Shown here one piece after another: positions 4,207-57,382 of a DNA stretch of 64,000 nucleotides. Source of the stretch: Octopus vulgaris (lineage: Eukaryota); contig OX597819.1 in assembly GCA_951406725.2 (NCBI GenBank), forward strand, positions 40,300,001 through 40,364,000, read 5' to 3'. Position 1 is the first letter of the stretch. Every line of letters begins with the position of its first letter. The notes below the pieces were generated by a model, which was not told the DNA's origin, made no database searches, and worked only from the letters and a program-made list of their open reading frames with translations. A program made the position numbers and the translations under genes.

Positions 4207-4483
4207 ATATTCTGTTGTGTCTGAGGAGAGTCATTTTTTTGTTTTGTGCCTTATAATTTAACACACTCACTAGTAAAATTTCCACTTATTTCTTTTTTAT
4301 TTTCCTAAATTTTCATTATATCTTGCAATCTTTTCAATAGAGTCAAGACTATTGAAAAGGTTGCAAGACGCAATGAAAATTTTAGGAAAATAGAAATAAG
4401 AAGTAAGTGAAAATTATACCGGTGAGTGTGTTACATTATAAGGCACAAAAAGAAAATGACTCTCCTTAAACACAATAGAATAT
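4207..4483. repeat. Long near-perfect palindrome (about 134-bp arms, about 8-bp spacer)
   Basis: atattctgttgtg..ttttcaatag / agtcaaga / ctattgaaaa..cacaatagaatat. Confidence 0.95.
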
Positions 4484-5101
4484 GCTTCAACACACGAACC
4501 CATATAAAGAATCTTGCAAACCAAATCCAAAGACGAAATTTTGTAACAGCTTTTCCTTTTTGTTTTGTATTTTCAAACTCAAATTAATATCTGCTCATTT
4601 GTATAAGGAAAGACAGGCATGGCTGTGTAATAAGAAGCTTGATTCCCAACCACATGGTTCAGGGTTCAGTCCCACTGCATGGTACCTTGTCCAAGTGTCT
4701 TCTACTACAGCTTTGGACTGACTAAAGCCTTGTGAGTTAGATGGAAACTGTAAGAAACCCATCGTGTGTGTGTGTGTGTACATGCAATGCAAACTCTGCA
4801 CATGGATACGTTACAGAAAGCTCAACAACAAAACAAGTTTATTTACAAGATATTTGATGACTTATATGAATAAACACTCACTTTATATTGCTTTCTCAAT
4901 GTATACACATGTACAAACACACACACGCATGGCCAAGAGAAAAGCTCATTTGGATTGTATTAGGAGACATGTATTAGCTTAGGACTTTTCTTAATGTATT
5001 ATTTGTTTGATGTTTTATAAACAGTGAGCATTATTATTAAGTTCTCTCACTGCAGGTTTTTAAGTGAAGTTTGTTTATAAAATATTTGATTATTTATATA
5101 T

Positions 5102-5288
5102 CAGTGCTTCGCAACCTTTTTTAACTTGTGGTACACTTATATTCTTTTCAAAATTTGGCGGCCCACCTGAACTAAAAATATAAGTAAAAATGTAGGGGAA
5201 AAAAATTATATTTAGGTTACACTGCGGCACACCTAGTGCCATCTCATGGCACACCAGTGTGTCACAGTGTACCGGTTGTGGAGCACTA
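5102..5288. mobile_element. hAT/Charlie-like MITE
   Basis: Imperfect TIRs cagtgcttcgcaacc / ggttgtggagcacta; subterminal ggcacacc motifs; no clean 8-bp TSD. Confidence 0.6.
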
Positions 5289-5298
5289 ACTATGAATA

Positions 5299-5531
5299 AG
5301 GCGGTGAGCTGGCAGAATTGTTAGCACACCGGGTGAAATGCTTTGCGGTATTTCGTCTGCTGTTATGTTCTGAGTTCAAATTCCCCCGAGGTCGACTTTG
5401 CCTTTCATCCTTTCGGGGTCGATTAAATAAGTACCAGTTACTCACTGGTGTCAATATAATCGACTAAATCTGTTTGTCTGTCCTTGTTTGTCCCCTCTGT
5501 GTTTAGGCCCTTGTGGGTAGTAAAGAAATAA
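5299..5531 (+). mobile_element. SINE family B, full length
   Basis: aggcggtgagctggcag..gagttcaaattcc..gcctttcatcctttcggggtcga..gtaaagaaata; flanked by tatgaataag direct repeats. Confidence 0.85.
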
Positions 5532-5588
5532 CTTATATGAATAAGTACTCACTTTGTTTTGTTTTCTCAATATATACACTCACATTTA

Positions 5589-5805
5589 AGGTGGCGAGCT
5601 GGCACAAGCATTAGCACACTGGGTGAAATATTTAGCAGTATTTCATGTGTCTTTATGTACTGAGTTCAAATTCCACCGAGGTCGACTTTGCCTTTCATCC
5701 TCTCAGGGTCGATAAATTAAGTACCAGTTACATACTGGGGTTTATCTAATCAACTGACCCCGTCCCCAAAAATTTTGGGCCCTGTGCCTAGAGTAGAAAA
5801 GAATA
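5589..5805 (+). mobile_element. SINE family B, alternative tail
   Basis: Same head and core, tail gtgcctagagtagaaaagaat. Confidence 0.8.
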
Positions 5806-53286: not shown

Positions 53287-53725
53287 TATAATGTTTTTTA
53301 TAAAATTATTTTAGCATTTTCTATCTTGACTTTTTTCATATATATATATATATATATATATATATATATACATAATTTTCAAATTTGCCTGCACACCACC
53401 AATGTTACGACAGTTGATGTATCAATTTTCAGTTTTATCCACAGATGATATTAACAGTAGTGGTATCTTATTTCAAATCTTTGTGTTTGAATGCTTTGTT
53501 TATATATATATGTATGAATGTATGTATATGTGTGTGTGTGTATATATATATATGTATGTATATGTGTATATATATATATATATATATATATATATACACA
53601 TATACATACATATATATATATATACATACACACACACATATACATACATACATACATACATACATACATACATACATACATACATACATACATACATACA
53701 TACATATATATATATATATATATAT

Positions 53726-54956
53726 ATCATCATCATCATCATCATCGTCGTTTAACGTCCGCTTTCCATGCTAGCATGGGTTGGACGGTTCAACTGGGGT
53801 CTGGGGAGCCCGAAGGCTGCACCAGGCCAGTCAGATCTGGCAGTGTTTCTACAGCTGGATGCCCTTCCTAACGCCAACCACTCCGAGAGTGTAGTGGGTG
53901 ATTTTATGTGCCACCGACACAGGTGCCAGACGAGGCTGGCGAACGGCCATGCTCGGATGGTGTTTTTATGTGCCACCGACACAGGTGCCAGACGAGGCTG
54001 GCAGACGGCCACGCTCGGATGGTGTTTTTATGTGCCACCGACACAGGTGCCAGACGAGGCTGGCAGACGGCCACGCTCGGACGGTGTTTGCGGGTGCCAG
54101 ACTGGCTACGGTCCCGTCCCGTCAGATGGTTTTCTTATGTGCCACCGGCACTGGTACCACAAGGATACAAATTCCATTGATGTTCATCTATTTTGATTTG
54201 GTTTGACTTGATTCGATTTGACTTTGATTTGATTTGCCTCAACAGGTCTTCACAAGTGTCACAAGCAGGAAGGTATGCACAGGCGGACTGACTACGTCCC
54301 AGGTAGGGGCCACGGGTTATGGCTTCACTAGTCTTGCCGGGTCTTCTCACGCACAGCATACTTCCATAGGTCTCGGTCTCTGGTCATTTCCATAGTGAGA
54401 CCTAACGTTCGAAAGTCGTGCTTCACCACCTCGTCCCAGGTTTTCCTGGGTCTACCTCTTGCACGGGTTCCCTCAACTGCTAGGGATTGGCACTTTCTCA
54501 CACACCTATCTTCATCCATTCTCGCCACATGACCATACCATCGCAATCATCTCTCTTGCACGCAACAACTGATGCTTCTTAGGTACAACATTTCTCTTAG
54601 GGAACTAACACCCTGTCGAGTAAGTACACTGACATTATACATCCATCGGAGCATACTGGCTTCATTCCTCATGAGCTTACGCATGTCCTCAGCAGTCACG
54701 GCCCATGTTTCACTGCCATGTAAGCATGGCAGTTCGAATACATTCATCATACAGTCTGCCCTTTACTCTGAGCGAGAGGCCTTTAGTCACCAGCAGAGGT
54801 AAGAGCTCCCTAAACTTTGCCCAGGCTATTCTTATTCTAGCAGTTACACTCTCAGCGCACCCACCCCCACTACTGACTTGGTCACCTAGATAACGGAAGC
54901 TATCAACTACTTCTAATTTTTCCCCCTGGAAAGTGACGGAAGTTGTTTTCTGCAGA
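53726..54956 (-). mobile_element. 5'-truncated RTE LINE
   Basis: KTTSVTFQGEKLEVVDSFRYLGDQVSSGGGC..RGRPRKTWDEVVKHD; about 4 UTR units. Confidence 0.93.
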
Positions 54957-54971
54957 TATATATATATACAT

Positions 54972-56208
54972 ATGTGGCAGATGCTCAGGAGCAATAAGCA
55001 CTGAAATTGCGCAGAGAGCAACTTCTGCCACATTCCAGGGAGAAAAACTAGAAATAGTTGATAGCTTCCATTACCTAGGTGACCAAGTCAGTAGCGGGGG
55101 CGGGTGTGTTGAAAGTGTAACTGCTAGAGTAAGAATAGCTTGGGCAAAGTTCAGAGAGCTCTTACCTCTGCTAGGGACAAAAGGCCTCTCGCTCAGAGTA
55201 AAAGGCAGACTGTATGATGCATGTGTATGAACAGCCATGCTACATGGCAGTGAAACATGGGCCGTGACTGCTGAGGATATGCGTAAGCTCGCAAGAAATG
55301 AAGCCAGTATGCTCCGATGGATGTGTAATGTCAGTGTTCATACTCGACAAAGTGTAAGTACCTTGAGAGAGAAGTTGGACCTAAGAAGCATCAGTTGCGG
55401 TGTGCAAGAGAGATGTTTGCGCTGGTATGGCCATATGGCGAGAATGGATGAAGATAGTTGTGTGAAAAAGTGCCACATCCTAGCTGTTGAGGGAACCTGT
55501 GGAAGAGGCAGACCCAGGAAAACCTGGGATGAGGTGGTGAAGCACGACCTTTGAACTTTAGGTCTCACTAGAGACCAAGACCTTTGAAAGTATGCTGTGT
55601 GTGAGAAGACCCGGCAGGACAAGTGAGACCATAACCCATGGCCTCAGTCCACTTATGCATACCTTTCCTTCTTGGGACACAAAACTCTACTTGTGAAGAA
55701 CTGTTGAAGCAAGTGAAAATCAAAATCAAAATCAAAAATCAAAATCGATCAACATGATTGGAAATTGTAGCTGTGATACCAGTGCCGGTGGAACATAAGA
55801 GAACCATCCGAATGTGGCCATTGCCAGCGCTGCCCTGACTGGCTTCCGTGCCGGTGGCACGTAAAAAGCACCATCCAATCGTGGCCGTTGCCAGCCTCGC
55901 CTGACCCCCGTGCCAGTGACACGTAAAAAGCACCATCCGATCGTGGCCGTTTGCCAGCCTTGCCTGGCCTCCGTGCCGGTGGCATGTAAAAAGCACCATC
56001 CAATTGTGGCCGTTTGCCAGCCTCGTCTGGCACCTGTGCCGGTGGCACGTAAAAAGCACCCACTACACTCATGGAGTGGTTGGCGGTAGGAAACATTGCC
56101 AGATCAGACTGGGCCTGGTGCAGCCTTCTGGCTTCCCAGACCCCAGTTGCACCGTCCAACCCATGCCAGCATGGAAAACGAATGCCAAACGATGATGATG
56201 ATGATGAT
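54972..56208 (+). mobile_element. 5'-truncated RTE LINE, head-to-head with the previous copy
   Basis: CGRCSGAI..FQGEKLEIVDSFHYLG..GRGRPRKTW; about 5 UTR units; (GAT)n tail. Confidence 0.93.
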
Positions 56209-56534
56209 ATATATGTATATATATATATATGTATATGTATGTGTGCATGTAGGTATTTATATATATGTACATACACACACACACACATATGTATATATGT
56301 ATTTATATATGTATATATATATATATATATATATATATATATATATATATATATATATATATATTCCAAGAGAGTTAGAGGTTGTGAATCCAACCAACTA
56401 AGGGATAATATCTATCCAATGTACCGCTGGTAGAATACCCAGTTACTAATACACAAGTGTTTTTTAATTGCAAGGCAATTACATTACCGAGTGTAATAAA
56501 TGGGTGAGGGTAAAAAGTTATTTTACTCTTAATT

Positions 56535-57382
56535 TATATAGCAATAAGAAAATGGAGGGGATCAAGGAGTTGGTATTCATCAACTTATAGACATTATATT
56601 AAGTCTATTTTTTTTAAAAAAGACAATTATAGCAATATACATACATACTCTTTACTCTCTTTTACTCTTTTACATGTTTCAGTCATTTGACTGTGGCCAT
56701 GCTGGAGCACCGCCTTTAGTCGTGCAAATCGACCCCGGGACTTATTCTTTGTAAGCCCAGTGCTTATTCTATCGGTCTCTTTTGCCGAACCGCTAAGTGA
56801 CGGGGACGTAAACACACAAACATCGGTTGTCAAGCAATGCTAGGGGGACAAACACAGACACACAACACATACACACACATACATATATATATATACATAT
56901 ATATGACAGGCATCTTTCAGTTTCCGTCTACCAAATCCACTCACAAGGCATTGGTCGGCCCGGGGCTATAGTAGAAGACACTTGCCCAAGATGCCACGCA
57001 GTGGGACTGAACCCGGAACCATGTGGTTGGTTAGCAAGCTACTTACCACACAGCCACTCCTGCACCTATGTATAACATATTAATGCTTTACATATGTAAT
57101 ATATATTGTATAATATATAAAATATAAAATATAAAAATACCAGTAATTATTAAAATATATAACGTAGAACAGAAAATTTTAATAATTACTGGCATTTTAT
57201 ATTTTATATTTTATATATTATATAATATATATTATATATGTAAAGCATAATATGTTATACATGTATGTATATGTATATTGCTATAATTGTCTTTTTTTAA
57301 AATATATAAATAGACATAGTATAATGTCTATAAGTTGATGAATACCAACTCTTGAACCCCTCCATTTTCTTATTGCTATATA
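56535..57382. repeat. Palindrome (about 205-bp arms, about 19-bp spacer) with a SINE inserted in the left arm
   Basis: tatagcaataagaaaatggagggg..taattattaaaat versus attttaataatta..cccctccattttcttattgctata. Confidence 0.95.
56647..57066 (-). mobile_element. SINE family A, full length
   Basis: Consensus match. Confidence 0.92.

Follow-up and report, generated by a model that had tools for sequence, protein, structure and literature searches.

Probable hairpin insertion scars, one of them in an RTE-like LINE, are dense in a 64-kb window of the Octopus vulgaris genome

Insertions that carry an inverted duplication are known from Penelope-like elements, from engineered R2 insertions and from rare L1 events. 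In the layout outlined for Penelope-like elements, a partial tandem (pLTR) is combined with an inverted 5'-truncated copy and with a tail of 30-40 bp at one end (PMC8557442). In the snap-back products sketched for R2-mediated insertion (PRINT), an antisense copy separates the 5' end of the insert from the upstream target, the 3' end of the cDNA having primed on itself (PMC11371274). At L1 sites, the fold-back inverted duplications reported keep the target-site duplication (TSD) and show a small hairpin, short microhomology and 52-220 bp of extra synthesis (PMC10191854; 10.1101/2024.12.14.628481). Hairpins that look like insertion scars are dense in the stretch of octopus DNA analysed here (64 kb, hereafter the window); such a density, and the RTE-like case described below, seem to be undescribed in octopus.

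The comparison with these systems is one of partial likenesses. R2/PRINT events, as reported, are engineered and occur in human cells, whereas the octopus loci are natural, aged and drawn from several families; the L1-site events, in the accounts available, copy flanking genomic DNA and are rare (3 events, 0.3%), whereas the octopus loci duplicate the element's own sequence. Yeast break repair likewise yields overlapping inverted pieces, with 2-20 bp between junctions and microhomology at the turn, yet the account in PMC11724301, as far as it goes, includes no reverse transcription, tail or TSD and concerns mainly repair mutants.

A first-pass annotation of the window had listed nine long inverted repeats. 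Eight are real; the ninth (53500-53670) is merely a self-complementary TA/TG/CATA microsatellite, and as a separate hairpin it vanishes once tandem repeats are masked. Seven of the eight are compact hairpins, with arms of 33 to ~200 bp, 86-100% identity and loops of 4-20 nt:

4198..4545, no strand assigned: locus A, insertion 4207-4536 flanked by direct repeats of 9 bp (4198-4206, 4537-4545); arms 4207-4340/4349-4483, 89% identity, loop 8; unpaired 53-nt end at 4484-4536.
19954..20221, no strand assigned: locus B, hairpin 20030-20205 with 14-bp direct repeats (19954-19967, 20208-20221); arms 20030-20107/20128-20205, 96% identity, loop 20; unpaired 62-nt end at 19968-20029.
27052..27253, no strand assigned: locus C, hairpin 27184-27253 with a 132-nt unpaired part adjoining (TA)18; arms 27184-27216/27221-27253, identity 33/33, loop 4.
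31057..31322, + strand: locus D, 5'-truncated RTE-like LINE with TSDs, ORF C-terminus, tail and turn; arms 31066-31169/31178-31279, 93% identity, loop 8.
45983..46364, no strand assigned: locus E, hairpin 46090-46364 with a 107-nt unpaired part (45983-46089), between two (TA)n runs; arms 46090-46217/46237-46364, 94% identity, loop 19.
47657..47906, + strand: locus F, old hairpin 47660-47850 with a ~55-nt unpaired end; arms 47660-47749/47760-47850, 86% identity, loop 10.
56365..57385, no strand assigned: locus H, single hairpin 56535-57382 with a 170-nt unpaired part (56365-56534) and (TA)n at both ends; arms of ~200 bp, 96% identity, 19-nt loop at 57157-57175; left arm split by a later SINE at about 56649-57069.

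With tandem repeats masked, seven hairpins scored at least 18 in the window, against none in each of 15 block shuffles. The unpaired extension on one side of the hairpins and the three loops of 19-20 nt (B, E and H), both pointed out in the first-pass annotation, were confirmed. Its description of the hairpins as made from unrelated sequences holds for the arms, which have no sequence in common between loci, but fails elsewhere: the extensions of C and H are related (75% over 72 nt, E 1e-4), and the element at the eighth locus (I, below) has four copies in the window. Three short perfect hairpins, absent from the earlier list, sit in non-repeat DNA (a comparison at a score of at least 13 gave eight hits, against a mean of 0-0.025 in 80 shuffles):

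783..820, no strand assigned: short perfect hairpin, 16-bp arms, loop 6.
36912..36945, no strand assigned: short perfect hairpin, 14-bp arms, loop 6.
37951..37989, no strand assigned: short perfect hairpin, 16-bp arms, loop 7.

The hairpins had also been said to lack TSDs, which is contradicted by A, B and D, where direct repeats of 9-14 bp are found. At these three loci, the three distant from (TA)n, one TSD copy is flush (0-2 nt) with the short arm, and the other is separated from its arm by 53 (A), 62 (B) or 34 (D) unpaired nucleotides; by chance, a flush match of at least 9 is expected at 3.9% of random positions, or 1.9% outside tandem repeats. The TSD of B is less certain because the repeat is of low complexity, lying in an (ATG)n-like SINE tail. 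The centre of the hairpin at A is near-perfect, and A and F are both old; no second copy of A was found within the 64-kb window, nor any candidate in a protein search with its translated arm. Pattern scans retrieved no loci from metagenome contigs for the A and D motifs, and none from viral contigs for D.

A case in point is locus D, which is certainly a retro-insertion. An inverted piece (31066-31181) is followed by a forward piece (31182-31300) holding the C-terminus of an ORF and by a tail, (ATG)5, at 31301-31315, the whole lying between the copies of a 9-bp TSD (31057-31065 and 31314-31322) whose first two bases overlap the tail; the stop codon and tail of the element form the exact end of the insertion. 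Translated, each arm gives the C-terminal part of an ORF with an RT (90% to P0001; for P0005, where RVT_1 is found at E 9e-11, 66% over 93% of 44 aa). The pattern of C-terminal motifs suggests the RTE label. Membership is also consistent with the short-repeat 3' tail and with the length of the TSD, inside the 7-15 bp range of RTE-type duplications (PMC6007223). The TSD begins with T, and a T run adjoins it rather than standing at -10; in RTE-like elements the TSD would start about 10 nt beyond such a run.

The turn of D falls at a native 4-bp micro-inverted repeat, AGAG/CTCT, around the 8-nt loop, and ~98 of the 116 inverted bases duplicate the forward piece. Classical L1 twin priming is not matched, for the inverted piece mostly duplicates the forward piece and not upstream sequence. 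The loop is antisense on the + strand, hence part of the inverted piece, which is the opposite of what fold-back of a tail-primed cDNA predicts; likewise the R2/PRINT snap-back, as sketched in its report, predicts a loop in the forward copy; D has microhomology at the turn, but its loop is in the inverted piece. Either the strand that folded was one primed at the upstream end of the target, or two cDNAs were joined via the same four bases, or the loop underwent a later flip.

Sequencing runs place D in a family whose other copies, in the one run that shows them, are unfolded. The summed contig depth over its arms (5e4-4e6 in four runs, where the unique right flank has 3.6-25.5) gives no copy number, yet clearly marks a large repeat family. 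In X2, the sole run showing read-through, 40 records cease matching at 31181 and continue in frame with the arm as FLWKPSTRDT (translated by hand), to be compared with LLWKPSSRNT in P0001; elsewhere, then, and in this one run, the D family continues into the ORF and is not palindromic. No strand-change joint in the family was seen among the 15 joints listed out of 65. Contigs span the passage from tail to right flank in all four runs, and the left junction in one of four (X1); its missing cover in X2, X4 and X9 was counted neither for nor against. The RNA-type runs X11-X20 contain 5-19% of the D-region words, which is no evidence of expression.

Locus I, the wider-spaced repeat, differs from the compact hairpins:

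25656..26902, + strand: locus I, Penelope-like layout with inverted copy, tandem copies, tail and (TA)n at both ends.
29245..29502, + strand: fourth copy of the locus I family, unfolded; its end is (TA)n, and the 38-nt tail is absent.

Its arms (25656-25821/25957-26161; 94.5% identity) are 135 apart. An inverted copy (25656-25963) is followed by a truncated forward copy (25957-26161), a non-coding body of 435 bp and a second forward copy (26597 to ~26890); a 38-nt tail is present at 25656-25693 and 26124-26161 and missing from the last copy. Two sites common to both forward copies differ in the inverted copy, which fits a separate template. Inverted copy, partial tandem, one-end tail and (TA)n target recur in the Penelope-like elements described in PMC8557442, and locus I is better read as their ordinary two-ended layout, as in Fig. 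2 of that report; a single mechanism for all the loci, as first suggested, is not supported, with this layout at I and mere microsatellite at 53500-53670.

The likeness extends in part to C, E, F and H, also at (TA)n and with a one-sided extension, as in the Penelope-like elements of that report. Loci I, C, E, F and H each touch (TA)n or have one end within 20 nt of it, a preference not peculiar to Penelope-like elements; a (TA)6+ run lies within 20 nt of the edge at four of eight hairpins, against ~6% of random intervals. The extension of C abuts such a run, and at E and H an internal TATA stretch that passes into (TA)n marks the end of the short arm. Repair of breaks in (TA)n, offered earlier as the common trigger, does not fit the TSD-bearing A, B and D, whose nearest (TA)6+ runs are 0.7-2.8 kb off. 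Unlike Penelope-like elements, the short pieces at I, C, E, F and H (and at A) contain no RT or GIY-YIG ORF, and D is RTE-like. Nine window motifs gave no convincing match to the supplement of PMC8557442, which covers some Octopus families, with Naiad and Hydra consensus sequences among them; visual comparison with Naiad_Ovul, and with Naiad_Obim and Hydra-1_Obim in their 3' parts, revealed short AT-rich resemblances only.

Each arm of F contains CTGATGA and, ~31 nt on, GAAAC, the order of a hammerhead-like core, and core-like heptamers are present in F, I and A. A descriptor scan had no match, Rfam no hammerhead match at F, I or A, and no hammerhead fold was found, the folds of F, I and 49150-49240 having z-scores of -0.3 to +2.0. 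Weak Rfam microRNA matches at four hairpin loci lie under the curated cut-off; nothing in the Rfam search exceeded gathering scores, sub-threshold matches being mostly microsatellite or generic hairpin. Pfam, on six window fragments, returned an integrase core at 28436 and nothing else.

That the hairpins are insertion products is borne out, and I lean, with some reserve, towards reading them as inverted duplications of an insertion's own 5'-most part, made in short 5'-truncated retro-insertions by microhomology-primed fold-back. The element's endonuclease would make a staggered cut, leaving a TSD, or cut inside (TA)n; a short cDNA would be made and the newly synthesized single strand would halt; its 3' end would anneal to a short complementary stretch lying 4-20 nt behind it; a polymerase would copy 30-200 nt of the folded strand; and the copied end would be sealed to the opposite side of the cut, in many cases by a TATA match where the target is (TA)n. 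What is observed comprises the hairpin geometry, the TSDs at three loci and, for D, an RTE-like origin with its tail, a family unfolded elsewhere and the native micro-inverted repeat; I infer the fold-back step, the identity of the folding strand and of the copying polymerase, and an origin by retro-insertion for A, B, C, E, F and H. Loops of 4-20 nt at seven of seven hairpins would be an automatic result of fold-back, and the proposed snap-back survives as the simplest route to arms starting at most 20 nt apart on the template. What falls is its generality, since none of 56 matches to the window's four commonest retroelement queries folds back. Against fold-back also speak the loop of D within the inverted piece, the cover of its left junction in X1 only with no strand-change joint in those listed, and the separate template suggested by the inverted copy of I.

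Three candidate structures were rejected. In the giant fold-back at 53568-56364 the two copies share 88.7% identity, less than the 90.5% that one of them shares with a third copy at 52661, and they differ by indels and have (TA)n between them; the SINE pairs 37318/37694 (85%) and 47955/48398 (75%) fall on the same grounds. Transposon-excision footprints are incompatible with arms of 33-200 bp plus TSDs.

A close rival, though appreciably less probable, is double priming, whereby reverse transcription starts from either end of the target (overlapping twin priming, or the two-ended mode of Penelope-like elements) on one short RNA or two, and the cDNAs end nearby and join via a few bases. L1 twin priming usually inverts a neighbouring piece without duplicating nearly the whole insert, which counts against this route. 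It explains the antisense loop of D without a later flip, and locus I with its one-end tail, partial tandem and two variants absent from the inverted copy, but it requires two cDNAs to stop 4-20 nt apart at all seven loci. In its favour, cleavage and extension of the two target strands have been obtained in vitro with a Penelope-like protein (PMC11167929), and PMC8557442 describes inverted 5'-truncated copies as typical of Penelope-like elements and a preference of the Octopus Naiad and Hydra families for (TA)n. On the other hand, 5' inversions were almost exclusive to L1 among three LINEs tested in human cells (PMC4245944).

Improbable, by comparison, is capture by host repair, in which template-switch fold-back fragments of single-stranded DNA, arising at any place in the genome, would patch staggered breaks with retroelements merely as frequent donors, as in the 'distant inverted insertions' of yeast. 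The yeast events described in PMC11724301 do consist of overlapping inverted pieces with gaps of 2-20 bp, no tail or ORF was identified at A, B, C or E, and the three perfect 14-16 bp hairpins in non-repeat DNA point to some host fold-back activity. Yet D stops exactly at stop codon and tail, the length of its TSD is in the range for RTE-type elements (7-15 bp, PMC6007223), and the abundant SINEs, the likeliest donors, are the source of no hairpin.

Fixed palindromic elements with constant ends (MITE, fold-back transposon or hairpin SINE) are very unlikely. The near-perfect centre and 9-bp TSD of A, a length known from Mutator-type elements, and the age of A and F would suit them, but one TSD copy lies 34-62 nt from the arm end at A, B and D, and the arms are therefore not terminal repeats; repeats flush with both TSD copies, as in a MITE or fold-back DNA transposon, are lacking there, and neither D nor I recurs in many copies that keep one palindrome and one pair of ends, since the D family runs past the turn and the fourth copy of I has no inverted partner. 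A fold-back artefact of sequencing or assembly can practically be dismissed: the identical arms of C would agree with it, and the hole at the left junction of D in X2, X4 and X9 proves nothing, but arms are 3.5-14% divergent, chiefly by transitions and many at CpG, TSDs are present, a SINE occupies one arm only, and contigs cover the D left junction in X1 and link its tail to the right flank in four of four runs.

To sum up, the tolerance of the hairpins proposed at the outset is upheld: their arms have aged via transitions and CpG decay, and the hairpin at H predates the SINE in its arm. Most likely, they are neutral insertion scars. More speculatively, octopus germ cells might often fold back the insertion intermediates of retroelements from several unrelated families, among them RTE-like LINEs, without purging the products; seven in 64 kb would correspond to ~1e5 compact hairpins per 2.8-Gb genome, and these, lying in introns and UTRs, would supply one-locus dsRNA to the repeat-directed A-to-I editing known in coleoids; the short perfect non-repeat hairpins might stem from the same host activity. 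Opposed SINE and LINE pairs in the same window already provide longer duplexes, and the proposed feeding of ADAR or Dicer by transcribed hairpins, with a role in RNA editing, is no more than a possibility. For annotation, such loci are liable to be called MITEs or microRNA precursors. For the mechanism, if a natural genome were to offer dated examples in number and from several families, a TSD-flanked RTE-like case among them, counts of loop orientation and turn microhomology could separate fold-back from double priming.

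The excess of hairpins in this stretch is real, and the hairpins are aged, insertion-born and of mixed origin. Nine inverted repeats had been listed in the first-pass annotation; eight of them hold, whereas the ninth (53500-53670) is a microsatellite that disappears after masking. In an ungapped scan with tandem repeats masked and loops of at most 60 nt, seven hairpins score at least 18, a value reached in none of 15 block shuffles, whose top score is 15. The excess over shuffles grows with three perfect hairpins in non-repeat DNA (783-820, 36912-36945 and 37951-37989; arms 14-16 bp, loops 6-7 nt): with loops of at most 25 nt, eight matches score at least 13, whereas two sets of shuffles, 40 in each, average 0 and 0.025; the three are possibly short scars of fold-back repair, a new strand having paired on itself and been copied.

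Three hairpins lie remote from (TA)n, and in each a direct repeat abuts the outer end of one arm, its partner copy lying past an unpaired stretch on the opposite side:

4198-4545, locus A: direct repeat of 9 bp, unpaired stretch of 53 nt
19954-20221, locus B: direct repeat of 14 bp, low complexity, unpaired stretch of 62 nt
31057-31322, locus D: direct repeat of 9 bp, unpaired stretch of 34 nt

TSDs had been said to be lacking, yet all three are so flanked; a flush match of at least 9 arises at random positions in 3.9% of 20000 trials, and in 1.9% of 17264 outside tandem repeats. At C (27052-27253), E (45983-46364), F (47657-47906), H (56365-57385) and I (25656-26902) at least one end touches (TA)n, where a TSD is unreadable; among random intervals, about 6% have an edge no more than 20 nt from such a run. 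At C, 84 nt more separate the right arm from the next (TA)n.

The best supported reading, and on balance a probable one, is that part of the insert was duplicated in inverted orientation as it retro-inserted, through microhomology-primed fold-back and end-joining. Locus I is better read as a two-ended layout: it opens with an inverted copy that a GAAAA match joins to a truncated forward copy, after which come a 435-bp body and a further forward copy. A 38-nt end shared by the first two copies is missing from the last copy and from a fourth (29245). The same layout, an inverted copy with a partial tandem, is given for Penelope-like elements in PMC8557442, where those of Octopus are described as favouring (TA)n. 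By layout locus I is a candidate Penelope-like element; it has no ORF, no ribozyme fold and no match to the published Penelope-like consensus set.

Double priming, in which both target ends prime reverse transcription, is a tentative second reading. At locus D both arms encode one peptide, C-terminal in an RT-bearing ORF and followed by a stop and (ATG)5; the motif pattern, rather than a tree, makes the ORF putatively RTE-type. The turn is at AGAG and CTCT, 8 nt apart and both native to the ORF, and the inverted piece holds the loop plus six extra codons (RGCTLS). This loop position conflicts with the prediction from fold-back of tail-primed cDNA; it is compatible with three histories, namely that a strand primed at the target's upstream end folded back, that two cDNAs joined at the turn's four bases, or that the loop flipped later. 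A third reading, in which fold-back fragments of the host were captured, is doubtful.

Locus D was compared with contigs of four of 24 sequencing runs (X1, X2, X4 and X9, one per organism label A-D). Summed contig depth is 5e4-4e6 on the arms versus 3.6-25.5 on the right flank; contigs span from tail to right flank in all four runs, and cover the left junction in X1 alone. The unique flank left of D (30950-31054) is covered in X1, whereas contigs are sparse or missing there in X2, X4 and X9; a polymorphism in length or an effect of filtering could account for this. In X2, with 24 loose ends listed and 1754 more beyond the listing, at least 40 records depart from the window at 31181 and continue the ORF upstream in frame, the hand translation reading FLWKPSTRDT against LLWKPSSRNT in P0001, the protein matching the D peptide. 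The D family is therefore not palindromic as a rule. Fixed palindromic elements are a quite improbable source of the hairpins.

Arm identity is 86-100% across the real hairpins, and the nine arm alignments hold 62 substitutions, 42 of them transitions, 21 of which are in CpG context. Substitutions of this kind mark ageing DNA and not read chimeras; the earlier argument that arm mismatches speak against a library artefact is borne out, and an artefact is scarcely tenable. On the calibration quoted in PMC13282606 (distance 0.09 = 25 My), arm differences of 3.5-14% would correspond to roughly 5-20 My, conversion between arms being ignored. At locus H the hairpin (56535-57382, 19-nt loop) survived at least one further insertion, since a SINE later entered its left arm.

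Other repeats and elements in the window are:

20725-20948: MITE candidate, 35-bp terminal inverted repeats 89% alike, TA ends, AT-rich interior; presumably Tc1/mariner-type
28433-29038: decayed fragment of an LTR-retrotransposon integrase (Pfam rve, E 7e-5, which misses the cut-off)
49158-49233 (-): hammerhead HH9 of Rfam, matched weakly at 30.4 bits against a cut-off of 52 (E 0.0013), fold unsupportive
51847-52617: 62-bp unit repeated 12.5 times within a LINE 3' region, 2-4 units in other copies
52840-53310: LINE fragment, best named protein matches Octopus bimaculoides (86%) and O. vulgaris (89%, with 41% of the query aligned)
53568-56364: 2.8-kb inverted repeat, absent from the first list; two LINE-derived elements 88% alike, head to head about a (TA)n run, each comprising an ORF piece, the 62-bp satellite and a (GAT)n tail
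60232-60354: one SINE/LINE 3' end twice, tail-to-tail about a short (TA)n; palindrome with 60-bp arms, 88%

The 53568-56364 pair and a copy at 52661-53285 are all 5'-truncated within about 40 bp of one place, which suggests either that truncation favours this site or that the truncated form is a fixed, non-autonomous one.

Literature searches whose scope stopped short of most subscription journals and of Repbase/Dfam entries listed no description of fold-back insertions being abundant in octopus. 'Palindrom', 'hairpin' and 'fold' each occur 0 times in the searched text of PMC13282606; squid repeats are widely edited according to PMC9068888, in which 'inverted' and 'hairpin' each have 0 occurrences.

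Fold-back had been proposed as a general step, which the retroelements of the window do not bear out. Interspersed self-repeat makes up about 39% of the window, and no host exon was identified in it. Used as queries, three SINE-like repeats and a LINE ORF gave 26, 13, 12 and 5 merged matches, 56 in total and about 50 elements, because an element can be counted once through an ORF piece and again through its 3' end. With all inverted matches within 300 bp scanned, none of the 56 carries a fold-back, and where two of them form an inverted pair, each member was inserted separately. Fold-back therefore belongs to some families or events and not to every insertion in the window, and known retro-insertion chemistry accounts for most of the hairpin excess.
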